Below are positions 3,438 to 61,018 of a DNA stretch of 64,000 bases, piece by piece (within the stretch, counting starts at the first letter, position 1; every line of letters starts with the position of its first letter). The notes under the pieces are model-generated. The model did no database searches. It worked only from the letters and a program-made list of their open reading frames with translations, and was not told where the DNA came from. The DNA lies in assembly GCA_964372165.1 (NCBI GenBank), contig CAYJPT010000001.1, positions 1,106 to 65,105 on the forward strand, given 5' to 3'. Made by a program: the position numbers and the translations under genes. Source of the DNA: an uncultured Desulfovibrionaceae bacterium. Its GTDB lineage: Bacteria; Desulfobacterota; Desulfovibrionia; Desulfovibrionales; Desulfovibrionaceae.

Positions 3438-4916
3438 CTAAAACTCCTCTGATGCTGGCAAACCTAAGAAACGTTCACTTAGCAGGCCAGCAACATCCAT
3501 CCACTTAATTCTTGCCATATCATAATCTAGCTCTACCATAATTAAACTAATACGTGCAGCAATAAGGTCTGCTTGTGCACTAGCTAACTCAGGGTACACT
3601 ACAACGCCGTCATTAAAGCTAATTTCTTTTTCTTTTAACAGCATTTCTGAAACTTTTAAGTTATTTTGGGCTATTTTAAGGCTATTTTCAGCCAATTTTA
3701 CCATCTGTTGCCCCTCTATCCATTCATGCGAAAACTCTGTACGAGCCTGAGCTTGCTCTTGAAATGCCTGAGCTTTTTCCATGCGTGCGGTCTGTACACC
3801 GCGATAACGCCTACCCCAATCTATAAGAGGAAATTGCAAATTCAAGTGTACAAATGTATCTTCTTGTCCATCAACAGGCTGATACTGTCCAGCAGGTGGA
3901 TTATTATCAACACGGATAGCTATATCTGGAATGTACTCTGCCCACGCTAACATTATGCCAAGATCCATCAAAGCAATTTGTCCGCGCAGTAAAAGTGCGT
4001 CTTCACTGCGATTCCAGTGTTCTTCCCAATGTAATTGTTCTCCGTCAAAACCTTGAAGAATATTTTTTGCATCGGTAGTATCAACATTAAATTTATGCTC
4101 TAACTCCACACCAACTATACTCTTCAACTTAGTGCGCAGCATTAAATCTTCAATCTTATTACGCTCAAGTTCGAGTTGTCTTTCACGCTCTTGTTGTATT
4201 GCTATGTTAAGAGATGCACCTTGTTTGCCCTCCACAGCTTCTAATTGCTGCCAATATTCGATTAATTTTTTGGCTATAGGCAAAAGTTGCTCTTGTAATG
4301 CAATAGTTTTTCTTTTTGCCTCAAGCTGCTGATACATACCAGCAATATTTAAAATAGCTTCAGCAATCGCTTTGCGATGTGTGGACAAAGCAATATCAAT
4401 CATCATAGCTTTTGATTTGTGATTAAAATATGTTGAGACAGGATTTGGGAAACTCATATTAAAAGCTACCCGCATCTTTGTTTTAGCATAGTCTGCCGGC
4501 AAGTCTTCAAGTCCAGTATTTAGAGCTGTAATATTATTTGAAATGTCTAAAGATATAGTTGGCTCTGGTAAATATTGCCAAACTGCATCAACAAGCTTGA
4601 GCTTACTCATCTCAATAGATACGGCTGAGTTAGCTAGTAATGGAGATTGCTGTATTGCCAAATACACGCTATCATCAAAGGAAAATGCTTTGTCAGAATT
4701 ATATAGGTTTGGCATTGAAGCTTCTAGCTTTGCTTTATGCTCAACAGGCACTCCTGGAGCAGACTCAAGCCAGTGTCGTGCTGGCAATTCAGGCGCACTC
4801 ATACCAGCTTTTTGTGATGCGCAACCTCCAAGGAAAGCTATCATCATAAATAAACATATGATATTTTTTGAAAGATATAACCTCTGCCCCACAAACCAAC
4901 CACTAAATTTAAACAT
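3438..4916 (-). CDS. TolC-family outer membrane efflux protein
   Basis: 492 aa with a lipoprotein-like signal (FLGGCAS) and two long helical repeats typical of outer membrane factors. The stop is 1-2 nt from the adaptor gene start. Confidence 0.75.
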   Translation of the reverse strand: MFKFSGWFVGQRLYLSKNIICLFMMIAFLGGCASQKAGMSAPELPARHWLESAPGVPVEHKAKLEASMPNLYNSDKAFSFDDSVYLAIQQSPLLANSAVSIEMSKLKLVDAVWQYLPEPTISLDISNNITALNTGLEDLPADYAKTKMRVAFNMSFPNPVSTYFNHKSKAMMIDIALSTHRKAIAEAILNIAGMYQQLEAKRKTIALQEQLLPIAKKLIEYWQQLEAVEGKQGASLNIAIQQERERQLELERNKIEDLMLRTKLKSIVGVELEHKFNVDTTDAKNILQGFDGEQLHWEEHWNRSEDALLLRGQIALMDLGIMLAWAEYIPDIAIRVDNNPPAGQYQPVDGQEDTFVHLNLQFPLIDWGRRYRGVQTARMEKAQAFQEQAQARTEFSHEWIEGQQMVKLAENSLKIAQNNLKVSEMLLKEKEISFNDGVVVYPELASAQADLIAARISLIMVELDYDMARIKWMDVAGLLSERFLGLPASEEF

Positions 4917-4925
4917 TTTTTTACC

Positions 4926-7900
4926 TCATGACACAACAGAAAGCATACGTAAACCTTGCAATACGAGCAAAACCTTACCATTTACCTCAACTATTTGCGC
5001 ATTAATTAATTTTTCCAAGCCTGAACCTTGTAATTGCCAATCTATATGAGCAATGTCATAATTTTGCATAGCAGACACGTGGCTAAAATGTAAGATATCA
5101 ACTATTTGGTAATTTTCGTATGTTGGCAAAGCCAACTTTTGTATCAACCCAATGCTTGCGATTTGCAAGTTATAGTACAAATCATGCTGTTCTGCAATGT
5201 TTTTTATTGAAAATATATGCTCATGAATATTTTTTTTATCTAATAATTCCTGCCTATTATCTCCCCATAAAGGAATTATACTTTCCTCTTCATTACTTAG
5301 GTAAATTTTTCCTTTAGCGTAGCATTGTTTCTCTTGTAAACGCCGTCCATTTTCAGAAATTGCATAAATCTCAAGCGATGATTGGCATGGCAAAACCAAA
5401 CCTTGGCCTGCATTTGTCCATTGCTCAGCTTCTATTATCGCTTCACCCTCGCGCGTGATACCATCTGGACATTTAAATGCACTTTCAAAATGTAAATCAC
5501 TAGCTCCACTACATTGCAACCAAGTAAAACCCATACGTGCTGCACTATATAATGTATCTAACATAAAAAGAGGTGACACTTCGGGGGCAGATGTTTTTTG
5601 ACTAGCCAAAAAACCATCTGCATAAACAGAAAAATTACGACGTGCAATAAAATTTGTCTGGCTATCTAACTTCATTTGCTTAGGGTATAAATGTGGAAAG
5701 TTATGCATATCTTCAGCAAGACCAGCTTTTGCCACTGCTGTGGGGCTTGCATCTGGCATAAGGGTTGGCACTTGCGGAAATGATTTATGCCAAATAACAT
5801 TGTTCTCAGTACCACATAAAAGCTCACGAGCAAAAAGCATTGGCAATACATCATAATCAAGTAAACCTACGCCCAGCGCAGTAAATACACTTTGTAAACC
5901 CTCATTAGATAGCATACCCACATTACCATTTACAGGTGCTAACCATAGGCAACGCCAAAACAAATCATGCTTTGTACAAAACTGCTCCAATAAGGCAGCC
6001 ATAGCTCGATTAGCTGCAGCATAATTAGCTTGTCCTATATTACCACACCAGGCAGCAAGCGATGATATACCCACAGCATAGCGCAAACCATACTTAACCG
6101 ATTCTTGCAAAAGGTTTTCTAAGCCATCATATTTAACGGCCATTACCTGCGATATTTGCCTTGTGCTCAATTCACTCAACGGTACATCTTCATTTATACC
6201 AGCTCCATGTATTAAGCCATGTATTTCACCCCAAGTTTCAAAAATGCTTGCCAGCGTTGTTTGTACTTGTTTTTTATCACTCACATCACAGGCGTAATAA
6301 ACACATTTTGCCCCAAAACCTGCCAGTTTTTCTATAACTTGTTGAGAAGGCGCAGCACTACGCCCTAATAGCAACAAGGTGCATTCAAGCATGGCTAAGC
6401 CCTCTAAAGCCTTTGGAGTAATGCCACGCCCTCCACCTGAAACTATAATTACTTGCCCTTTGCTAATGGGTAAGCCAAATCTACCAGCAGCCCAAGGTTT
6501 TTGCTTTAAGCGAAGCGATCCCATGTAGCTTGAGTTTAAACATGAGTACAAAGGAAATTCACTATGCGTGCATAATATTTTTTGCATAAAGCCTTGCATT
6601 GCGCCATTACTTAAACCTTGCTTAGTGTGTATGGCTCTAAAATGACGCTGTGGATATTCCTGCGCTGCCGTCAAGAGTAATGCATTTAAGCTTGCAAAAA
6701 GATTTGAACCAAGTAGCGATGTTGTCAATTCTTCATGTACTATACACATTTGCCCTTTTTCACTACGCAAAAATGCCTGTACAAGACTCATGTATTCTAT
6801 AATAGGTGAAGAATCTTTATAGGATAAAATTTCATCTAGATATGGCAAAGCTATGACAATCAGACCTGGTTTCAAGTCTTGCTCAAGCGTTGCTTGTGCG
6901 TGAAGTATATCCTCAACCCTTAATACTTGCTCACTGCCAAAGGTTTGCGTCAAAAATTCATACCATTGTTGAGCATAGTCATTTTTCCCAACTATCACAG
7001 CCGGTAAAAATTCTTTTTTATCACTAAGCAATTGTGCATTCCACTCCTCACCTGGCATTACAAAAGGGCATTTTTCAATAACACTACGTACAATGGGATG
7101 AGTGGTAATAGGCTTTTCTATGGTAGGTTGTTCATCACTTGTTGAATCTATATTTAATGAACGCGCATTAGCCACAACCTTTGCTAAATCTGCAATAGTG
7201 GCAACATCTATAAAATCCTCAAAGTTGACCTTAACATTAAATGTCTTTTCAATTTCATTAATAACTACAGGAAAACGACTTGAACGCATAGCAAGGTCAT
7301 AACGCAAATCCATGTGTGCAGACAATTGGTGCGACTCAAAACCTGTTACTCGTACCAAAAGCGGTATAATGTCTTCTACATAATTGGCAGTGTTTTCAGT
7401 TTTTGTTTCAAGACATTTTGCGTCGCTTTGATCTTTTGCAATTTTTTTTCGCTTTGGTACAAAATTATCCGGAACAACATAAGTACTTGGGCCTTTAATA
7501 TGCCCAAGAGAATAAAGCTCAGCCACAGCCCTGCGCATGGCTTCAACTTCTTTACCTTTACGTCCAACGGAAATACGATGCGCTGTAGGTTGTATTTCTG
7601 AAATAAGCCGACTTAAAGTTGCAGTTGGACCAAGCTCCACAAAATGGCGAACAGAATAATCATTATATACTCTATTAACACAATCCACCCAGCGTACCGG
7701 GCTTTCATCAAGGTCAGCTATATATTCGCATATACTTTCTTTATCGTTTGGATATAAATCTGCAGTAACATTGCTTAACACTGGTGTATGTCCAGCTTGA
7801 ATAGTAAATTCCATCAAACTATCAATGGATATTTTGCGAATAGTACGCAAACCAGGATGATGGAAAGCCATACTAATATTAAGCAGGCCTACCATAATTT

Positions 7901-8762
7901 TTTGCTCTTTTAATTTAGCGCAGGCTTTTTCTAAATCGCTTCGTGTTCCACTTAAAATGTACTGCGTAGGGCTATTATAACTTGAAACATAAAAATTTGG
8001 AAAATCCTCTAAAACCTGCTTGATTACATCATAAGGAGCATGAACAGCCATCATACCACTATCGTGATTACCCTCTTGCTCCATATCATCTATAATTTTT
8101 GAATGCTTATTGATGATACCCCACGCATCTTCAGGCGAATATACTCCCGCTAGGCATAAGGCAATAAGCTCTCCTAAACTATGCCCAACAACAATATCCG
8201 CTTTATATCCTAGTGTCTCAAGGTAGTATGCTTGGGCATATGAAACGAAAAAAATATACGGAGCTTGCCAGCGTGTGCGCATAAGCTTTTTTTTATCGGT
8301 TTCATCAAGTAAGGCTAAAATATCCCAATCTGAAACAGCAGCAATGCGCTCCATGGCTGCTCTAACAGCAGGAATATTATCATAAAGTTCACGCCCCATA
8401 TGAGCAAAAACGCTGCCTTGCCCTCCGGTAATAGTAGCAATTCTAGGCTTATCTTGCTTTTTTTCCAGCCATATACCCTGCTTGCGCAAATCCTTTAAAG
8501 TAGCATTATCTGGATTTTTTCCAATGTTAGTTATATAATTACGCCATGATGGTGTTATAGAGCCAATTCGCCATAATTCACCTGCATGACTAAGGCTAAT
8601 TAAGCGAACACCATTTTCTACGTGTTGACTTTCTATGAAGTTTTCTTGTTCCTGTCCTGCACCCATAGATACGGCATTAGTACTTTCCAATTCAATGCTC
8701 CCACATAAAAGCCAATAATATGGCTTTTCAATATAAACTATATTAATTAACACATAAAACAA
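4926..8762 (-). CDS. KS-less PKS-like multidomain protein: acyltransferase - ACP-like - ketoreductase, plus unassigned N- and C-terminal regions
   Basis: AT motifs GGQGSV, GHSLGE (nt 8172-8186) and MAFHHP. ACP-like four-helix region around nt 7271-7315. SDR/KR motifs GGGRGIT (about nt 6421-6450) and YAAAN (about nt 6004-6032). No CHH ketosynthase motifs anywhere. The track start is a non-ATG codon; the true start may be the ATG at 8666. Confidence 0.85.
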   Translation of the reverse strand: MFYVLINIVYIEKPYYWLLCGSIELESTNAVSMGAGQEQENFIESQHVENGVRLISLSHAGELWRIGSITPSWRNYITNIGKNPDNATLKDLRKQGIWLEKKQDKPRIATITGGQGSVFAHMGRELYDNIPAVRAAMERIAAVSDWDILALLDETDKKKLMRTRWQAPYIFFVSYAQAYYLETLGYKADIVVGHSLGELIALCLAGVYSPEDAWGIINKHSKIIDDMEQEGNHDSGMMAVHAPYDVIKQVLEDFPNFYVSSYNSPTQYILSGTRSDLEKACAKLKEQKIMVGLLNISMAFHHPGLRTIRKISIDSLMEFTIQAGHTPVLSNVTADLYPNDKESICEYIADLDESPVRWVDCVNRVYNDYSVRHFVELGPTATLSRLISEIQPTAHRISVGRKGKEVEAMRRAVAELYSLGHIKGPSTYVVPDNFVPKRKKIAKDQSDAKCLETKTENTANYVEDIIPLLVRVTGFESHQLSAHMDLRYDLAMRSSRFPVVINEIEKTFNVKVNFEDFIDVATIADLAKVVANARSLNIDSTSDEQPTIEKPITTHPIVRSVIEKCPFVMPGEEWNAQLLSDKKEFLPAVIVGKNDYAQQWYEFLTQTFGSEQVLRVEDILHAQATLEQDLKPGLIVIALPYLDEILSYKDSSPIIEYMSLVQAFLRSEKGQMCIVHEELTTSLLGSNLFASLNALLLTAAQEYPQRHFRAIHTKQGLSNGAMQGFMQKILCTHSEFPLYSCLNSSYMGSLRLKQKPWAAGRFGLPISKGQVIIVSGGGRGITPKALEGLAMLECTLLLLGRSAAPSQQVIEKLAGFGAKCVYYACDVSDKKQVQTTLASIFETWGEIHGLIHGAGINEDVPLSELSTRQISQVMAVKYDGLENLLQESVKYGLRYAVGISSLAAWCGNIGQANYAAANRAMAALLEQFCTKHDLFWRCLWLAPVNGNVGMLSNEGLQSVFTALGVGLLDYDVLPMLFARELLCGTENNVIWHKSFPQVPTLMPDASPTAVAKAGLAEDMHNFPHLYPKQMKLDSQTNFIARRNFSVYADGFLASQKTSAPEVSPLFMLDTLYSAARMGFTWLQCSGASDLHFESAFKCPDGITREGEAIIEAEQWTNAGQGLVLPCQSSLEIYAISENGRRLQEKQCYAKGKIYLSNEEESIIPLWGDNRQELLDKKNIHEHIFSIKNIAEQHDLYYNLQIASIGLIQKLALPTYENYQIVDILHFSHVSAMQNYDIAHIDWQLQGSGLEKLINAQIVEVNGKVLLVLQGLRMLSVVS

Positions 8763-8766
8763 GATT

Positions 8767-8950
8767 CAGCACAATTAATTGGCACAGACTGATGACAAAC
8801 CCCCTTTCAGGCGTTTGTGCCGCCTAAGGCAGACAAGCTGCCTTGGCAGTAAGGCACGAAAATCATTCGTTTAACGGCGCAAATGAATTGCGCCTACTCT
8901 TGATTTATCGGCTCGTGCTGACTTTGTCAGCACTCTGAGCACAATTAATT
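8767..8950. repeat. Structured ~156-nt module flanked by an exact 14-bp direct repeat (AGCACAATTAATTG) and splitting a palindrome
   Basis: Direct repeats at 8767-8780 and 8937-8950. The second lies in the perfect 16-bp palindrome GCACAATTAATTGTGC (8938-8953). The interior carries at least four hairpins, for example AAGGCAG-ACAAG-CTGCCTT at 8825-8843. Its core is homologous to 16709-16794. Confidence 0.6.
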
Positions 8951-9346
8951 GTGCAGTAGTCTTAAAATATTCAATAAAAGACCACAAAGACAGAAAAAAT
9001 ATTTTTCACAACATAACAATTCAAACTATACTCAAAAAAATACATATCATATCAAATTCTTATGTGGAATAAAATTACAACTCCAAATTAATTCGCAAAA
9101 TGAGCACAGTATAGCATTATTACTTCCTACATTAGAAGTAACATGCTCATCAAAGCTGCAAGGTCTTTGATTTATAAATTATAGGACATTTTATCACACT
9201 TGTCTATCAAGGCATAGGTTTGCCCAAAACCAAGTTAATATATATTCTTGCCAAAAAGAAAAGTTTGTTGTAAGCATCTTCATTCACGTGCTACATGATA
9301 ACATTGTCAATACAAGCACCATATAAAACTTTGGGAGATAGATGGC

Positions 9347-10645
9347 ATGAATAAAGAGCAAGAATTGAACACCATGTCCGATGAGCAAATAGAAAAAAGT
9401 GATTCTTCGTTGGAGTTCAATTATGTGCACAAAAAACTTTCCGTTGGTCGAGCTGTGGCCATGGGAAAAAAAATGGGTATTCGCAACCCACTATTTTTGT
9501 GCCACGATAAAGCTGCCAAAGCTTATACCACCATTGAGGGCAAAGAATACCTCAATTTTTCTACCTATGATTACCTAGACATTAATACACATCCTGAAAT
9601 AACCGCCGCTGTTACTAAAGCTGCAGAAAAATACGGAACTTCTGCCGGTGCAAGCCGCCTTGTTGGTGGGGAGCGCCCACCACATTTAGAGCTTGAACGC
9701 GCCATTGCAGATTTTTATGAAGTTGATGATAGCATTGTTTACGTAAGTGGCCATGCAACCAATGTTTCAACATTGGGTTTTCTCTTCACCTCGCGCGATT
9801 TAATATTGCATGATAATCTTGCACATAACTCCTTAATGCAAGGAGCTAAGCTTTCATCTGCAACGCGCATGTCTTATACGCATGATAACACCGACGCTTT
9901 AGAAGCTATATTAAAACAACGCCGTAATGACTTTCGCCATGTAATAATTGTAACTGAAGGCCTTTTTAGCATGGACGGCAATATACCTGATTTACCACGC
10001 ATCGTTGAACTAAAAAAACAATATAATTGTATGCTACTTGTAGACGAAGCACACTCATTAGGTATACTTGGTGCAACAGGGCGTGGTGCACGTGAGCATT
10101 TTAATATTGACCCCAATGATGTTGACATGTGGATGAGCACCCTTAGTAAATCACTGTGTGGTTGCGGGGGTTTTATTGCCGGCAATAAAAAACTTATTGA
10201 AAACTTAAAGTATGGCTCTCCAGGCTTTGTTTTTAGCGTAGGAATGTCACCTATACTTGCTGTTGCATGCAAAACAGCTCTTGACATAATACAACGTGAA
10301 CCAGAGCGTGTACACAAATTACAACATATTAGTAAGTATTTTCTTGACTATGCCAAAAGCCTCAACCTTGATACTGGTGTTGCACAAGGATATGCCAATG
10401 TTCCAATAATCGTTGGTAATTCTATGGTGACAGGCGTTGTATCCAACGCACTATTAAACCGTGGTATTTACGTTATGCCTATTACTTTCCCGGCAGTGCA
10501 GGAAGGTACAGCAAGACTTCGTTTCTTCTTATCAGCTGCACATTCTGAAGCTGATGTACGAAGAGCACTTGATATTACAGCAGAAGAATTACCAAAGGCT
10601 GCAAAAACCATTGAAGAATGGATTGCAAACAACCCACAAGATTAA
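9347..10645 (+). CDS. PLP-dependent alpha-oxoamine synthase family enzyme (BioF / serine palmitoyltransferase / CqsA class)
   Basis: 432 aa with a class-II aminotransferase fold. VDEAHS and the PLP-lysine motif STLSKSL (about nt 10136-10160). SD-like GGGAGA precedes the ATG. Confidence 0.85.
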   Translation: MNKEQELNTMSDEQIEKSDSSLEFNYVHKKLSVGRAVAMGKKMGIRNPLFLCHDKAAKAYTTIEGKEYLNFSTYDYLDINTHPEITAAVTKAAEKYGTSAGASRLVGGERPPHLELERAIADFYEVDDSIVYVSGHATNVSTLGFLFTSRDLILHDNLAHNSLMQGAKLSSATRMSYTHDNTDALEAILKQRRNDFRHVIIVTEGLFSMDGNIPDLPRIVELKKQYNCMLLVDEAHSLGILGATGRGAREHFNIDPNDVDMWMSTLSKSLCGCGGFIAGNKKLIENLKYGSPGFVFSVGMSPILAVACKTALDIIQREPERVHKLQHISKYFLDYAKSLNLDTGVAQGYANVPIIVGNSMVTGVVSNALLNRGIYVMPITFPAVQEGTARLRFFLSAAHSEADVRRALDITAEELPKAAKTIEEWIANNPQD

Positions 10646-10834: not shown

Positions 10835-10876
10835 ATTGAAGACCTCTGCGCAATCTATTGTGCAGAGGTCTTCAAT
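10835..10876. repeat. 20-bp-stem palindromic hairpin of the CTCTGCACAAT / ATTGTGCAGAG repeat family
   Basis: TTGAAGACCTCTGCGCAAT-CT-ATTGTGCAGAGGTCTTCAA has one G-T pair and no U-tract. The same arm sequence bounds the elements at 16626-16828 and 53110-53194. Confidence 0.6.
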
Positions 10877-13520: not shown

Positions 13521-13542
13521 TCCGCACAATAAATTGTGCAGA
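13521..13542. repeat. Degenerate copy of the GCACAAT-ATTGTGC palindrome
   Basis: TCCGCACAAT-AA-ATTGTGCAGAA, immediately after the OMP stop codon. Confidence 0.45.
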
Positions 13543-13566
13543 AGTCTAAAATTTCATTAACAAAAC

Positions 13567-15624: not shown

Positions 15625-15815
15625 TTAAGGAAACGCATATTAAATTAACGAGTCAAAAAACATATTGTGCGTTTCCTTGCAAAGTAGGCAATTGTGCCTG
15701 CTTTGCACGCCGAATGAGAGCAAAAAACCACGTTTTTTTGCGTCCCACAGGGCGAATGAAGGCAGTGTGCCTTTCTGATTTATGCTGCTTGCAGAATAAA
15801 TCAGCATTTCCTTAA
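15625..15815 (+). repeat. Structured repeat (TTAAGGAAA-terminated family), long copy, in the lepA / glycosylase divergent promoter region
   Basis: An 82-nt core (15667-15748) matches the reverse complement of 32709-32850 with 5 mismatches. Hairpins include AAGGAAACGC...GCGTTTCCTT, CAAAGTAGGCA-ATTG-TGCCTGCTTTG and GCAAAAAA...TTTTTTGC. It carries about 50 extra nt (two hairpins) absent from the other copy. Confidence 0.65.
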
Positions 15816-15827
15816 TTTGGAGCTTAT

Positions 15828-16469
15828 ATGTATTTTAATTATGACGACCATGCTATAGCACATTTAAAAAAGCGTGATACTGCACTTTCAAAAGCCATTG
15901 AACAAATAGGGCATATTAATCGCGAAGTTAATTCAGATATTTTTACTTCCATTATAAAGCACATTGTAGGTCAGCAAATATCTACTGTTGCTCAGGAAAC
16001 AATTTACACAAGGCTTACCGAAAAATTTTCTTGCCTTGATGCCTCTAGTTTGTGTGCTTGCCCACGAGATGAATTGCAAGCATGTGGACTCAGCTTTAGA
16101 AAGGTAGATTACATCCAAGATTTTGCAAGAAAAGTACGTGGTAATGAATTCTGTGTAACAAGCCTTGCCCAAATGTCTGATGATCAAGTAATTGAACAAC
16201 TAAGTGCACTTAGAGGCATTGGAGTTTGGACAGCAGAAATGCTATTACTTTTTTGCCTACAAAGACCAGATGTTGTAAGCTTTGGTGATTTAGCAATTCT
16301 ACGTGGCATGCGCATGCTTTATCGTCATCGTAAAATTGATAAAAAATTATTTGCTAAATATGCAAAACGGTATTCGCCCTATGGCTCTGTTGCAAGTTTA
16401 TATCTTTGGGCCATTGCCGGCGGAGCAATGCCAGAACTTACTGACCCTGCACCAAAAAAGAAAGCATAG
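15828..16469 (+). CDS. DNA-3-methyladenine glycosylase II family (HhH-GPD)
   Basis: HhH motif LRGIGVWTAEMLLLF followed by GDLAILRG with the catalytic Asp. 213 aa. Confidence 0.8.
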   Translation: MYFNYDDHAIAHLKKRDTALSKAIEQIGHINREVNSDIFTSIIKHIVGQQISTVAQETIYTRLTEKFSCLDASSLCACPRDELQACGLSFRKVDYIQDFARKVRGNEFCVTSLAQMSDDQVIEQLSALRGIGVWTAEMLLLFCLQRPDVVSFGDLAILRGMRMLYRHRKIDKKLFAKYAKRYSPYGSVASLYLWAIAGGAMPELTDPAPKKKA

Positions 16470-16602: not shown

Positions 16603-16625
16603 TACTAATATTTTATAATACTGAA

Positions 16626-16828
16626 AGCTCTGCACAATTGTTTTCAGATATGAATTAATGGTTAAAACTTAAAATCTACTTAAACACCACAGCCAAGCGT
16701 ACAGAGCGAAAGGCACGAAAATCAATCACTTAACGGTGAAGCAAAGCTCCACCTATTCTTGATTTTCGGTTGCGCTGATTAACGTCAACGCTCTATGAAC
16801 CTCTACATAATGAGTTATGCAGAGGTTT
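16626..16828. repeat. Composite element: CTCTGCACAAT-type inverted ends enclosing the structured module also seen at 8849-8936
   Basis: Left end AGCTCTGCACAATTG (16626-16640); right end TTATGCAGAGGTT (about 16815-16828). The first ~60 nt align with 53110-53170. The core at 16709-16794 aligns with 8849-8936 with compensatory changes in two hairpins. Confidence 0.6.
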
Positions 16829-16864
16829 CAATACTGTTATTTTATTTACGTAATTCGCACACAT

Positions 16865-16900
16865 TTAAGGAAACCCTGATTAAATCAGCATTTCCTTAAA
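16865..16900. repeat. Solo TTTAAGGAAA...TTTCCTTAAA hairpin overlapping the cobA-hemD stop codon
   Basis: TTTAAGGAAACCCTGATTAAATCAGCATTTCCTTAAA has an inner CTGATT/AATCAG stem. The TAA stop of the minus-strand gene (16898-16896) lies inside the right arm. Confidence 0.5.
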
Positions 16901-18404
16901 ACCCAAAAAATTGCGTCAGCTCTTCAACCAAGGCCGGAATAGTAAACTCTTTGGGTTGAATGTGGCAATCCAAACCATGTTTTTGTAATGTTTTAGCTGT
17001 GATTGGTCCTATGGCTGCTAATTTTACATTAGGATATTGCGCTAAAGTTTCTTTGGGAACTAAAGATAAAAAATTATCTACAGTAGAAGATGAACCAAAG
17101 GTGATACAATGAATACGACCATTTGCAAGGTCTTCTAGCACTTCTTCCTTGCGGTTGGCTGCAGGCTTTGTTTCATAAATTGGCAAAACATTTACCATTG
17201 CACCAGCTTCACGCAAAGCTTCTGGTAGGACTTCGCGTGCCTCCTTGGCTCGTGGTAATAAGATATTTTGTCCTTTCATACCAAGTGCCAACATGCCTTC
17301 AACTACACCCTCTGCAACATATTGTGCCGGAACAAAATCAGCTTCAATGCCAAAGCTGCGCAAAATTTGCGCCGTTGCCGGGCCAATGGCCGCAACCTTT
17401 ATGCCATGCAAGCAGCGGCTATCAAGACCATGTATTTCAAGCCTTTTCCAAAAATGTTTCACTCCATTAACTGACGTAAACACAAGCCATTGGTAAGTGT
17501 TAAGCTTTTTTATTTGCTCATCAACTTCGGCATAGTCTGCCATAGGATGTATTTCAATAGTTGGGAATTGAATAACATGCGCGCCAAGCTCTGCAAGGTC
17601 AGCGGCAATGGTGCTTGCTTGCTCCCTTGCCCGTGTTACAACAATACCCTTACCAAGCAATGGTTTTTGCTCAAACCAATTAAGTTTATCACGCAATGTA
17701 ACAACATTACCCACTACAATAATTGAGGGATTGGTAAAGCCTTGTTTTGCTCCCTCTTGAGGCAATGCTGCAATGGTTGCAACAAGAGAACGGTGATGCG
17801 CAGTCGTACCCCAATGTACAAGGGCAGCAGGTGTATCAGGATTTAGCCCAGCATTAATCAAATTTTTTGAAATATCAGGTAGATTTTTCATACCCATAAC
17901 AAACACAAGGGTGGATGCCGATTTTGCAAGGGCTTCCCAATTATGTACAGAGCCGGGCTTATCTGGATTTTCATGTCCGGTAATAAGTGTAACTGACGAT
18001 GCAAAAGCACGATGTGTTAAAGGTATGCCTGCATAGGCTGGCCCTGCAATGGTACTTGAAATACCTGGTACTTCTTCAAAGGGCACTTGTGCAGCCAAAA
18101 GCTCTTCAGCTTCTTCTCCACCCCTACCAAAAATATAAGGATCGCCACCCTTTAACCTTGCAACAACTTTACCTTCTTTAGCTTTTTCAATAATAAGCGC
18201 ATTAATTTGATCTTGCGGTAAAGCGTGGTTTGCAGCCCTTTTACCCACATAAATAAGCTCTGCTGTGGGTTTTGCGTAATTTAATAATGTTGTATTGGCT
18301 AGAGCATCATAAACTACAACGTCAGCCATTTCTAAAATATTTTTACCCTTTATGGTCAAAAGACCAGCATCACCAGGGCCTGCTCCGATAAGATATACTT
18401 TCAT
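16896..18404 (-). CDS. cobA: Uroporphyrinogen-III C-methyltransferase fused to uroporphyrinogen-III synthase
   Basis: N-terminal MKVYLIGAGPGD with GGDPYIFGRGGEE (SUMT motifs), followed by a HemD-like C-terminal half. 502 aa. Confidence 0.9.
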   Translation of the reverse strand: MKVYLIGAGPGDAGLLTIKGKNILEMADVVVYDALANTTLLNYAKPTAELIYVGKRAANHALPQDQINALIIEKAKEGKVVARLKGGDPYIFGRGGEEAEELLAAQVPFEEVPGISSTIAGPAYAGIPLTHRAFASSVTLITGHENPDKPGSVHNWEALAKSASTLVFVMGMKNLPDISKNLINAGLNPDTPAALVHWGTTAHHRSLVATIAALPQEGAKQGFTNPSIIVVGNVVTLRDKLNWFEQKPLLGKGIVVTRAREQASTIAADLAELGAHVIQFPTIEIHPMADYAEVDEQIKKLNTYQWLVFTSVNGVKHFWKRLEIHGLDSRCLHGIKVAAIGPATAQILRSFGIEADFVPAQYVAEGVVEGMLALGMKGQNILLPRAKEAREVLPEALREAGAMVNVLPIYETKPAANRKEEVLEDLANGRIHCITFGSSSTVDNFLSLVPKETLAQYPNVKLAAIGPITAKTLQKHGLDCHIQPKEFTIPALVEELTQFFGF

Positions 18405-26472: not shown

Positions 26473-26523
26473 AAATACCCCTTTGGGGACGTAAGAAGTA
26501 AATTCTGGCTTGTTTTACGGCAC
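26473..26523. repeat. Copy of the ACCCCTTTGG...TTCTGGC...TTTTACGGCAC repeat module
   Basis: AAATACCCCTTTGGGGACGTAAGAAGTAAATTCTGGCTTGTTTTACGGCAC aligns with 29698-29748 and, more distantly, with 8797-8856. Confidence 0.55.
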
Positions 26524-29488: not shown

Positions 29489-29697
29489 AATAACTCTTAA
29501 AATTAAATGGTTATGTCATTATATCTGCATAAAACATAGTGCCTAATGTATACATAGTTTGTAACCTTATATAAATATATATAGCCTTTACATGGCTTAA
29601 TGCAAGACAAATGTATCTATTTAAAATTTAAATAAATGTTACCTGACACAATTTTAACTTTATAAAGTTACTTAGAAAAATAAAGCACGTTGCCTTC

Positions 29698-29776
29698 AAA
29701 TACCCCTTTGGAGACGCCAGAAACAAGTTCTGGCTTATTTTACGGCACGCAAAATTTTTCTGTAAGAAAAATTTCG
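29698..29776. repeat. Copy of the ACCCCTTTGG...TTCTGGC...TTTTACGGCAC repeat module with a downstream helix
   Basis: AAATACCCCTTTGGAGACGCCAGAAACAAGTTCTGGCTTATTTTACGGCAC, then AAATTTTTC-TGTAA-GAAAAATTT. The hairpin GCCAGAA-ACAAG-TTCTGGC shares the loop ACAAG with 8825-8843 but has a different stem. Confidence 0.55.
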
Positions 29777-29918
29777 TTAGTCGCCACCCTCATAATGCTT
29801 AATCTCATTATTATAATAAGTCTTCATATATTTAAACTTCTCAATATATATTACTGCAAGATAAAAACACCTCAAGCAAGCAATTGCGAAATAATATTGT
29901 TTAGTATATTTTACACCC

Positions 29919-32708: not shown

Positions 32709-32850
32709 ATTTAAGGAAATGCCCCGGTGGGACGCAAAAAAGCACGGTTTTTTGCTCTCATTCGGCGTGCAAAGTAGGCACAATTGCCTACTTTGTAAGG
32801 AAACGCACAACATATTTTTAACTTGTTGATTTATCAGCGTTTCCTTAATA
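32709..32850 (-). mobile_element. MITE-like non-autonomous element (TTAAGGAAA-terminated family) flanked by a 7-bp direct repeat
   Basis: The ends ATTTAAGGAAATGC and GCGTTTCCTTAATA are inverted repeats (11 of 14 match). An exact AGCTGGC flanks both sides (32702-32708 and 32851-32857). The interior is the inverted homolog of 15625-15748. Confidence 0.6.
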
Positions 32851-44519: not shown

Positions 44520-45071
44520 ATGGCAATAGCTACATCAGCTGAACAAATAAGCCCCTTGGGCGTTGGCAGCAAAGTACCAGATGGTGCGCTATTAACTATG
44601 GATGGGCAAAGCACTACACTCAAAGCAGTTTTAAATGATAAGGCTGCAGTCATAATTTTTTATCGTGGTGAATGGTGACGCTTTTGCCTCACGCAGTTAG
44701 CGGGAATAAACTTCATCCTTTCAACATTAGAAGAGCGTGGATATTCAGTGCTTAGCATTTGCCCTGATTTACCAGCAGGACTGAAAAACGTACATGAAAG
44801 CAGGAAACTTGATTTCCCTCTTTTTTCTGATACAAGCGTTGCCCTTTCAGAACAATTTGGCATAGCATTTCATGTTGATGACGCAACTGTTGATATGTAT
44901 TTAACAAAATACAATATTGATCTTGAAAAAGCTTCAGGCGAAAAACATCATAACTTACCCGTACCGGCTGTGTTTGTAATTGACGCAGAGGGCACAATTA
45001 AATTTGCATACACCAATGCAGATCATACTACACGCCTAAGCAATGATGAGCTACTAGAGCAGGCTACTTAA
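44520..45071 (+). CDS. Peroxiredoxin-like (PRX_like2 / AhpC-TSA fold) selenoprotein, with UGA at 44676-44678 read as selenocysteine
   Basis: Track ORFs 44463..44678 and 44748..45071 are in the same frame, with no other stop between them. The joined sequence reads VIIFYRGEW-U-RFC, where non-Sec homologs have FYRGxWCPxC. GGAGG precedes the ATG at 44520. Confidence 0.8.
44676..44705 (+). promoter_or_regulatory. In-frame UGA plus a candidate bacterial SECIS stem-loop
   Basis: The stem UCACGC / GCGGGA (one mismatch) with loop AGUUA spans 44689-44705 and starts 11 nt after the UGA. This is the position expected for a bacterial SECIS. Confidence 0.4.
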
Positions 45072-45091
45072 GGAAATCAGCGTTTCCTTAA
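45068..45091. repeat. Solo TTAAGGAAA...TTTCCTTAA hairpin overlapping the selenoprotein stop codon
   Basis: TTAAGGAAA-TCAGCG-TTTCCTTAA. The TAA stop (45069-45071) lies inside the left arm. Confidence 0.5.
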
Positions 45092-52973: not shown

Positions 52974-53109
52974 TATATTCGATGCTGAATAACACAGTTC
53001 AATGTATTATTCTAAAAGGCACATTAACCCCAAGTAAACTTTTGGGAAATACCAGCATTTCATCTCAAAGCTCGCCGGGGTGTTCCCGTTAGCCTAAAAA
53101 CAAAGCGAG

Positions 53110-53194
53110 AGCTCTGCACAGTTGTTTTAAAATATAATTTTGCCGTTAAAATTTTAAAAATTACTTCAATGGCAAAATGTAATGTGCAGAGGCT
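53110..53194. repeat. Short element bounded by CTCTGCACA(A/G)TT-type inverted ends
   Basis: Left end AGCTCTGCACAGTTG (53110-53124); right end AATGTGCAGAGGCT (53181-53194). The interior aligns with the first ~60 nt of 16626-16828 and contains the TTTTGCC...GGCAAAA stem. Confidence 0.5.
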
Positions 53195-53242
53195 TTTATT
53201 TTTATTATTGCAGAAGCTTTTTATCTTTTATGAATTGGCAGC

Positions 53243-60714: not shown

Positions 60715-61018
60715 ATAAAAATTGCAACATTTTTCTTAAAATATTTTTGATTATAATTTCACTATATTTACTGTCACTTACTTTACAACAATCTTATTTC
60801 CCAGCAAGCAATACAAAAAAAATTTCTCCAAAGCTCTTTTCAAAATCGTAAAAAATTGCCACAAGGGACGCAAATTCCCCATTATTTAAAAATAATTGTG
60901 CAGATCTCTCAAATATCAAATTTAAGTGCTTAAAGGATTGATTAAGCTTTACATTAAACTATTAATATATCATGATGCAGGTTACACTTATATAGCTTAA
61001 TCTTAATAGGAATTTTAT

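Follow-up and report, generated by a model that had tools for sequence, protein, structure and literature searches.

The two related segments of the window, that is, of the whole 64,000-nt stretch analysed here (GC content 39%), belong to a dispersed repeat family that we assign to the MITEs because of its TIRs, its duplicated target sites, its sharply defined ends, and copy numbers that reach dozens in one genome; every testable hallmark of a MITE is found in it. Two features set the family apart from ordinary MITEs, namely, the duplication of a whole palindrome at the insertion site and a conserved fold of the RNA type. We consider it probable that the family is mobilised in trans, that it inserts, in the manner of IS1630, with duplication of the target palindrome, and that its core is retained by selection as a minus-strand RNA. 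The first-pass annotation had suggested the scaffold of a MITE- or PATE-like mobile element; the first half of this suggestion stands, given the TIRs, duplications, boundaries, and copies, while the second does not, as TIRs and target duplications are both present.

Homology between 8849–8936 (copy 1) and 16709–16794 (copy 2), which had been aligned in that annotation, is seen with both blastn and nhmmer. With blastn within the window, 8851–8921 and 16710–16778 show 74.6% identity over 71 nt (E 5.5e-6), and the same pair is recovered by the direct-repeat search of the window (family D4). Both copies contain AAGGCACGAAAATCA, TAACGG, and CTAYTCTTGATTT, and both keep the long-range helix CGAAAATCAA/TTGATTTTCG, as had been described. 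The reported sequence changes in the two inner hairpins are present as well: P2 changes from GGCGCAA/TTGCGCC in copy 1 to GGTGAAGC/GCTCCACC in copy 2, and P4 from GTGCTGAC/GTCAGCAC to GCGCTGAT/GTCAACGC, each with one mismatch in copy 2.

A pattern scan for AAGGCACGAAAATCA-N4-10-TAACGG, performed on one genome per GTDB species, yields at least 118 loci, all of which, except for one chance match, come from at least 18 Desulfovibrionaceae MAGs; AAGGCACGAAAATCA and TAACGG, being fixed by the pattern, are invariant in the copies so collected. Among the matches listed, a single MAG has 31 loci. Many of the loci are located at contig ends; in practical terms, the repeats break MAG assemblies of this Desulfovibrionaceae clade. 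The copies were sorted into classes by the sequence 5′ of AAGGCACG, with 69 of class A and 40 of class B among the scan matches listed. An nhmmer profile built from class A copies of other genomes has 152 matches within the 118 listed loci; in all, more than 150 further copies are seen in the at least 18 MAGs. Run against the window, this profile matches 8785–8937 at E 3e-47 and 16690–16794 at E 4e-20, with no third significant match in the 64 kb. The dispersed copies occupy unrelated loci with unrelated flanking genes. The family is expanded in low-GC Desulfovibrionaceae; the cobA/hemD protein of the window is 89% identical to that of one repeat-bearing MAG and ~72% identical to its Bilophila counterpart. 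In the literature searched, neither this repeat family nor any Desulfovibrio MITE was found described.

Copy 1 is a full-length class A element (CAGACTGATGAC...GTCAGCACTCTG; 8785–8937, minus strand) that covers profile positions 1–151, and its TIRs are recovered with zero mismatches in the TIR search. Class A elements have a constant length of 150 nt, or 152 nt counting the terminal C and G, in which no ORF fits. They end in imperfect TIRs, CAGACTGATGACAAAC (left end) and CAGAGTGCTGACAAAG (right end, read as its reverse complement), which match at 12 of 16 positions and have the core TGNTGACAAA.

On each side of a class A element the same short hairpin sequence is found, and this sequence varies among loci. 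A direct repeat of 14–38 bp (median 25) abuts the element in 44–45 of the 50 class A copies with both flanks, and the same repeat score is reached by 0.7% of left and right flanks paired at random; in the strict class A set the duplication lengths are 17–34 nt. The duplication coincides with a palindrome: the summed unpaired overhang has a median of 1 nt and is zero in 15 of 35 cases. Of the flanking repeats, 39 have the direct and four the inverted orientation, two of these four being near-perfect palindromes. For copy 1, the duplicated palindrome is AGCACAATTAATTG(T)GCA; its left copy, AGCACAATTAATTGGCA (8768–8784), abuts the element and matches the right copy, AGCACAATTAATTGTGCAG (8938–8956), as seen from direct reading and flank alignment. 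Typically, the left hairpin copy consists of the stem-loop and approximately three T, while the right copy has the full T-run, so that the target was a rho-independent, often bidirectional, terminator.

The class A targets are palindromes of unrelated sequence, with no fixed motif. In five cases (L076, L094, L101, L118, and copy 1 of the window) the insertion is within a class B TIR palindrome. Two loci, L014 and L111, contain tandem hairpin–A–hairpin–A–hairpin arrays with identical units, which fits unequal exchange between duplicated hairpins. The flanking hairpins of L028 and L073 show loop flips. Retro-insertion models were rejected, since both flanking hairpins are the local one and not that of the donor. 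A clean empty site was not recovered, as the two candidate orthologous sites are rearranged or too diverged; in the closest relatives (89% and 87% identity) the downstream gene order differs from that of the window, and the metagenome scan with the neighbouring protein as the query returned no relative.

Copy 2 is a class B element. The interval initially assigned to it, 16626–16828, falls within a complete 207-bp element at 16623–16829 (minus strand), bounded by TIR-L GAAAGCTCTGCACAATTG (16623–16640) and by TIR-R, which ends with TTATGCAGAGGTTTC (16813–16829), and flanked by a directly readable 6-bp target duplication, AATACT, at 16617–16622 and 16830–16835. Generally, class B elements have sharp boundaries at 207–209 bp, a length in which no ORF fits, and TIRs AAGACCTCTGCACAATT / AATTGCGCAGAGGTCTT; copies from one genome are ~95% identical. 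They duplicate an AT-rich target of 5 bp, the two copies of which are identical in 14 of 26 cases and agree in at least four of five bases in 20 of 26.

The make-up of class B is tripartite, with a small MITE of 87 nt that has an inward-facing copy of its own TIR, a stretch of class A that runs from AAGGCACG through the P4 hairpin, and a full palindrome of the B TIR. In copy 2, the part captured from class A, the 3′ two-thirds of its core (AAGGCACG, the long helix, P2, and P4; profile positions 47–151), lies at 16709–16794 on the minus strand, and the terminal palindrome GAACCTCTACATAA TGAG TTATGCAGAGGTTTC, formed by the internal TIR copy and TIR-R, lies at 16797–16829. Hence, what had been taken for a second copy of the module is indeed homologous to the first, but is a composite, in which a different MITE carries a part of the module. 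A homologue of exactly this subtype is found at an unrelated locus (L054). At L019 and L040, a class A-like element has B palindromes on both sides, an arrangement through which the composite probably arose. As judged by eye, AGAnnnCTG(C)ACAA is common to the A and B TIRs.

Further relatives are seen in the window. At 53107–53196 there is a B-type MITE without the RNA core, which shares its TIRs and AT-rich body with the 5′ portion of copy 2 and is 77% identical to 16623–16674; a solo palindrome of two class B TIRs, the hairpin type targeted by class A, is located at 10837–10876. The element at 29680–29790 represents family C, a short relative of class A consisting of a P0-like hairpin, a hairpin with an ACAAG loop, GGCACG, a simple hairpin, and TTAGTCGCCAC; a partial copy at 26473–26523 is 86% identical to 29698–29748. 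Family C has many copies in other genomes, and at L032 (3415–3535) the class A TIR-L and P0 (the first hairpin) are joined to a family C body. The ACAAG-loop hairpins that had been ascribed to a single module are both present, at 8826–8844 and 29717–29735; the latter, however, belongs to family C. The candidate TGCACAATT was rejected as a DNA uptake sequence, as its k-mer counts show no genome-wide over-representation and the motif is the class B TIR.

Compared with dinucleotide shuffles, the fold has z of −5.0 for copy 1 and −3.8 for copy 2. Covariation was analysed on 37 distinct class A copies from other genomes, for which the structure predicted by RNAalifold has 41 pairs, compensatory changes being seen at 15; in a pair count on that structure, 97.5% of cells are paired. 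Double changes occur at 16 pairs, versus 2–4 with the partners slid by 1–3 columns. The number of doubly changed cells is 116, versus 37 ± 4 in shuffles, and none of the 500 shuffles reaches the observed value; as the copies are kin by descent, the shuffle control overstates the significance, and the slid control together with the many pair types (AU/UA/CG; CG/GC/UA at single pairs) is the stronger argument for covariation. In the copies from high-GC Desulfovibrio (L028, L069, and L073) the stems are GC-rich and the junction and loop sequences unchanged; the interior of class A is better conserved than the TIRs. The earlier interpretation of the compensatory changes as a selected structure is thus borne out by strong covariation in other genomes; the plus orientation given to the fold is not, since the imbalance between G.U and A.C and the fold energies favour the minus strand.

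On the plus strand, the alignment has 33 A.C cells and four true G.U cells; another 18 apparent G.U at alignment columns 45/60 were discounted as an alignment-indel artefact. The minus-strand structure has 44 pairs with 98.3% of cells paired, and G.U outnumbers A.C 86 to 5, with U-A / U.G / C-G series at several single pairs; the class B cores show the same trend on the minus strand (G.U 44 versus A.C 8). The consensus fold energy is −50.5 kcal/mol for the minus strand versus −27.3 kcal/mol for the plus strand, and 31 of the 37 copies have the lower MFE on the minus strand. The one-sided mismatches and the energies together indicate that the folded molecule is the minus strand. The wobble pattern is of the RNA type, and we take the fold to be maintained by selection acting on the minus strand in single-stranded form, most likely as RNA rather than ssDNA.

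In copy 1, the minus-strand fold starts with the 5′ hairpin H4′ (8915–8933), which contains the right TIR, and proceeds to the long helix H3′ (8857–8865 with 8902–8910), which encloses the apical hairpin P2 (8876–8882 with 8888–8894), hairpin H1′ with internal loops (8817–8857), and the 3′ hairpin H0′ (8796–8817), in which the left TIR is represented by its inner half. Helix H3′ has a GA/GA internal loop and a 1 × 5 loop (A / GUUAA); insertions of approximately 70 nt are tolerated in P2 (L026, L044, L050, and L078).

A structured RNA could be selected for the host rather than for the element. In that case the core would be a host-useful small RNA or a 3′/5′-UTR riboregulator, with the MITE ends as a vehicle and host function selecting the fold at many loci; we regard this as possible, but rather unlikely. 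The conserved loops, the covarying stems, and the RNA-type wobble asymmetry would all be expected of such an RNA, the fold is kept even as a passenger in class B, and the copies are located beside terminators, so that many would be transcribed as UTRs. In the window, a strong minus-strand terminator (16604–16558) follows copy 2, and a good minus-strand promoter-like site (9206–9178) is seen upstream of copy 1. Copy 2 itself lies, as had been noted, between two convergent 3′ ends, those of a DNA-glycosylase-like gene (15828–16469, plus strand) and of a cobA/hemD fusion (16896–18404, minus strand). However, the orientation of copies relative to the neighbouring genes is approximately random (seven sense and six antisense among the co-directional, with a further 12 convergent), and the neighbours are unrelated housekeeping genes. 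Moreover, no copy was found conserved at an orthologous locus between species, the regions compared being rearranged or diverged, and the ~95% identity within a genome agrees better with recent bursts than with loci retained over long periods. Within the element there is no evident promoter. The approximately random orientation, unrelated neighbours, and the lack of an internal promoter together favour a function tied to the element over one for the host, a preference that we hold loosely.

Alternatively, the fold might be a by-product at the DNA level, reflecting hairpin- or cruciform-templated repair, or a cruciform bound by the transposase, with no RNA involved. The element does have palindromes as its targets, a hairpin containing half a TIR is found at each end, and the loop flips in the flanking hairpins of L028 and L073 mean that palindrome-specific DNA events occur. 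Nevertheless, this explanation is unlikely: it predicts no strand asymmetry, contrary to the excess of G.U over A.C (86 versus 5) and the U-A / U.G / C-G series, and the unpaired internal-loop sequences are conserved across lineages in which the stems have diverged.

Searches for known RNA families agree with the first-pass annotation, which could name none. Rfam 15 at gathering thresholds gives no matches in the whole window; relaxed to E up to 10 for both copies, it gives only chance-level matches of the miRNA/snoRNA type, and at E up to 1 no matches at five other loci with diverse copies. A 17-bit match to twister-P3 was rejected, as the conserved hairpin of the ribozyme is absent. The tRNA/tmRNA scan and the search for tandem repeats and CRISPR-like arrays in the window yielded nothing relevant.

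The search for an autonomous partner, for which the IS200/IS605 TnpA/TnpB, IS110-type, and RT genes had been the candidates, finds none of these in the window or the flanks. According to Pfam and NCBIfam, the 40 ORFs of the window encode no transposase, integrase, reverse transcriptase, TnpB/IscB, or Cas protein; the 632 flanking ORFs cluster into housekeeping families only, with no protein family recurring beside the copies; and genes for DEDD, TnpA, TnpB, or IscB proteins are absent from both the window and the copy flanks. Inverted TIR pairs 0.6–3.5 kb apart are pairs of separate MITEs, none of which encloses an ORF. The plasmid collection has no match to the element, and the viral contigs have one chance match, inside a coding region. 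As no autonomous element with matching ends is found in the window, ~650 kb of flanks, plasmids, or viral contigs, the transposase family named below is a guess.

Under the reading that we favour, a trans-mobilised MITE with a selected RNA core, a DDE-type transposase supplied in trans would bind the TGNTGACAAA ends of class A and strike an extruded palindrome, in most cases a rho-independent terminator, at its base. Since the duplication equals the palindrome to within 0–2 nt, the simplest geometry is a short stagger of the normal kind that spans the base of the cruciform; the entire hairpin would then be copied onto both sides of the element by gap repair. Class B represents a second generation, in which a different small MITE with the TIR AAGACCTCTGCACAATT captured the 3′ two-thirds of class A together with a flanking palindrome, and would now spread as a conventional 207-bp MITE with 5–6 bp duplications. 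The fold would serve the element, as a regulatory or transposase-associated RNA derived from the ends of a lost autonomous parent. A stronger version, in which the minus-strand fold of 150 nt acts as a functional RNA, so far undescribed, on which the element depends for its movement or control, seems to us quite unlikely. It could, e.g., be an RNA cofactor that loads or directs the transposase onto extruded terminator palindromes; if so, this would be RNA-dependent DNA transposition of a new kind, targeted by structure and not by sequence.

If the favoured reading holds, this high-copy MITE provides dozens of natural insertions for studying a transposase that reads DNA shape instead of sequence. 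Each insertion would rebuild the terminator that it strikes, letting the parasite stay harmless, and UTRs, 3′ as well as 5′, may be altered by insertions at many genes. MITE interiors normally decay; the conservation of the four-hairpin fold from 39%-GC to high-GC hosts would therefore point to an RNA with a job, which is not expected of elements of this class.

Several known systems resemble the family in some traits and differ in others. PATEs and the IS200/IS605 ends with omega RNA are likewise small and non-autonomous, and they carry hairpins in subterminal position together with a structured RNA at one end; PATEs, however, have neither TIRs nor a duplication and lie beside a fixed 4–5-nt motif, and, as all three properties differ here, this assignment was rejected. 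The IS110/IS1111 bridge or seek RNA was rejected as well, as there is no DEDD gene beside the copies and the duplication is present. Accordingly, although subterminal hairpins at both ends, a ~150-nt RNA with long stems and internal loops, insertion at palindromes, and the existence of solo small-RNA modules mobilised by IS110 (ssr9 of ISPpu9; PMC12288879) would suit derivatives of PATE-like IS200/IS605 or IS110-type elements, with the fold as a guide-type RNA (omega RNA, bridge/seek RNA), such an origin is very improbable, given the TIRs and target duplications lacking in those families, targets that are unrelated palindromes and not a fixed motif, no TnpA, TnpB, IscB, or DEDD gene in the window or flanks, no match in Rfam, whose models cover HEARO and the motifs associated with IS605, and the entry of ISPpu9 into REP at a constant AG, which leaves the REP unduplicated. 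The ssr9 module of ISPpu9 (IS110 family, Pseudomonas putida) is itself a selfish passenger that bears a small RNA, spreads independently, and lands in palindromic repeats (PMC12288879). It differs in that ISPpu9 uses a specific AG in REP, makes no duplication, and has the transposase adjacent in most copies, while here the palindromes are sequence-independent and duplicated, with no transposase nearby.

Bacterial class C group II introns, similar to class A, use terminator hairpins as safe insertion sites; they are, however, ribozymes of 0.7–2 kb that possess domain V and, in most cases, a reverse transcriptase, and insert downstream of the hairpin without duplication. The intron models of Rfam match neither the window nor the five further loci. 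REP/REPIN, mobilised by RAYT, are paired inverted REP hairpins without duplication, in contrast to the four different hairpins, TIRs, and duplication seen here. Long target duplications, as in class A, are also known for the IS1202 family (ISNCY), where they are fixed for each subgroup at 5–6, 16–17, or 27–28 bp (bioRxiv 10.1101/2022.12.17.520857); this family was rejected, as the class A duplication varies continuously with the hairpin, from 14 to 38 bp.

Transcribed members that form long hairpins are known among bacterial MITEs (such as Correia/NEMIS, RUP, ERIC, MITEAba12). Ordinary MITEs show end-to-end pairing and a drifting interior, whereas here there are four local covarying hairpins with strand-specific wobble; ordinary MITEs duplicate 2–10 bp, whereas class A duplicates a whole palindrome of 14–38 bp. 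Insertion of the latter kind is rare and, in the literature searched, described only for IS1630 of a mycoplasma. IS1630 (IS30 family, Mycoplasma fermentans) targets and duplicates inverted repeats or terminator-like palindromes of variable sequence, 16–26 bp long (PMC3317919, PMC2853133). IS1630 is an autonomous IS of 1.2–1.4 kb with 27-bp TIRs from a mollicute, while class A is 150 bp long, non-coding, and found in Desulfovibrionaceae. With no transposase found beside the copies, the likeness of class A to IS1630 is one of insertion pattern, and here the characteristic trait is observed directly: what is duplicated is the palindrome itself, to within a median overhang of 1 nt.

A sigma-70-like promoter of near-consensus sequence (TAGACA-17-TATAAT, 11/12) lies on the minus strand at 9206–9178. 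Transcription from this putative promoter would pass through copy 1 of the class A element, a 150-nt MITE with a folded core, on the folding strand, and continue into the PKS-like gene at 8762–4926. This large gene (acyltransferase and ketoreductase) and a BioF/serine-palmitoyltransferase-like gene are divergently arranged at 4926–10645; the pair may represent a sphingolipid- or sulfonolipid-type pathway.

Class A duplicates its target hairpin. At two loci of Desulfovibrio sp., L028 and L073, the loops of the two flanking hairpin copies are reverse complements of each other (ATAAC vs GTTAT; CAACTGA vs TCAGTTG), and at L028 the stem additionally carries a compensatory change. It looks as if the loop had flipped once the element was in place; the alternative is that insertion follows another geometry in that lineage.

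Solo palindromes, each made of two TIRs of the composite class B MITE (TTGAAGACCTCTGCGCAATCTATTGTGCAGAGGTCTTCAA), are found at gene ends at 10837–10876, 13524–13548, and 60890–60910; they resemble minimal MITEs or terminators. Class A insertions at other loci use such palindromes as targets. A B-type MITE that has no RNA core occupies 53107–53196, and after it comes a 25-nt tandem repeat (53180–53237), which repeats the right TIR of that MITE.

Another palindromic repeat, GGAAAnnCTGATTAAATCAGnnTTTCC, is also located at gene ends (15794–15815, 16866–16899, and 45070–45091), and at locus L058 this hairpin forms the target that class A has duplicated. A repeat of about 55 nt with the hairpin TGCAAAGTAGGCAATTGTGCCTGCTTTGCA is present in two copies of opposite orientation, 15660–15720 and 32750–32810, one being upstream of a glycosylase-like gene and the other adjoining ruvC.

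Family C, a short relative of class A, is a further repeated structured element, observed in the window at 29680–29790 and 26473–26523 and, in other Desulfovibrionaceae MAGs, at loci L020, L062, L090, L012, and L106. It has the AAAGGCACG junction in common with its relatives, along with the ACAAG-loop hairpin; longer units start with TAGTCGATGC plus a hairpin and end with the similar TTAGTCGGCAC.

In class A variants at L026, L044, L050, and L078, the apical loop of the P2 hairpin is enlarged by an insertion of about 70 nt (GACCCAACGGGCACGTAGTG...). This insert is conserved between two species of MAG and may represent either an additional RNA domain or a mini-element nested within class A. The long poly-G run at a contig end in L120 (5070–5179) is an assembly or sequencing artefact of that MAG. 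At L049 (approximately 4285–4455; Desulfovibrio sp. JAGZUV01), an unrelated MITE, about 180 bp long, interrupts the P1 loop of the class A copy; it has TIRs GGCTCAGCCCTCATTAAAAGCGCC and, in IS630/Tc1-like fashion, an apparent TA duplication.
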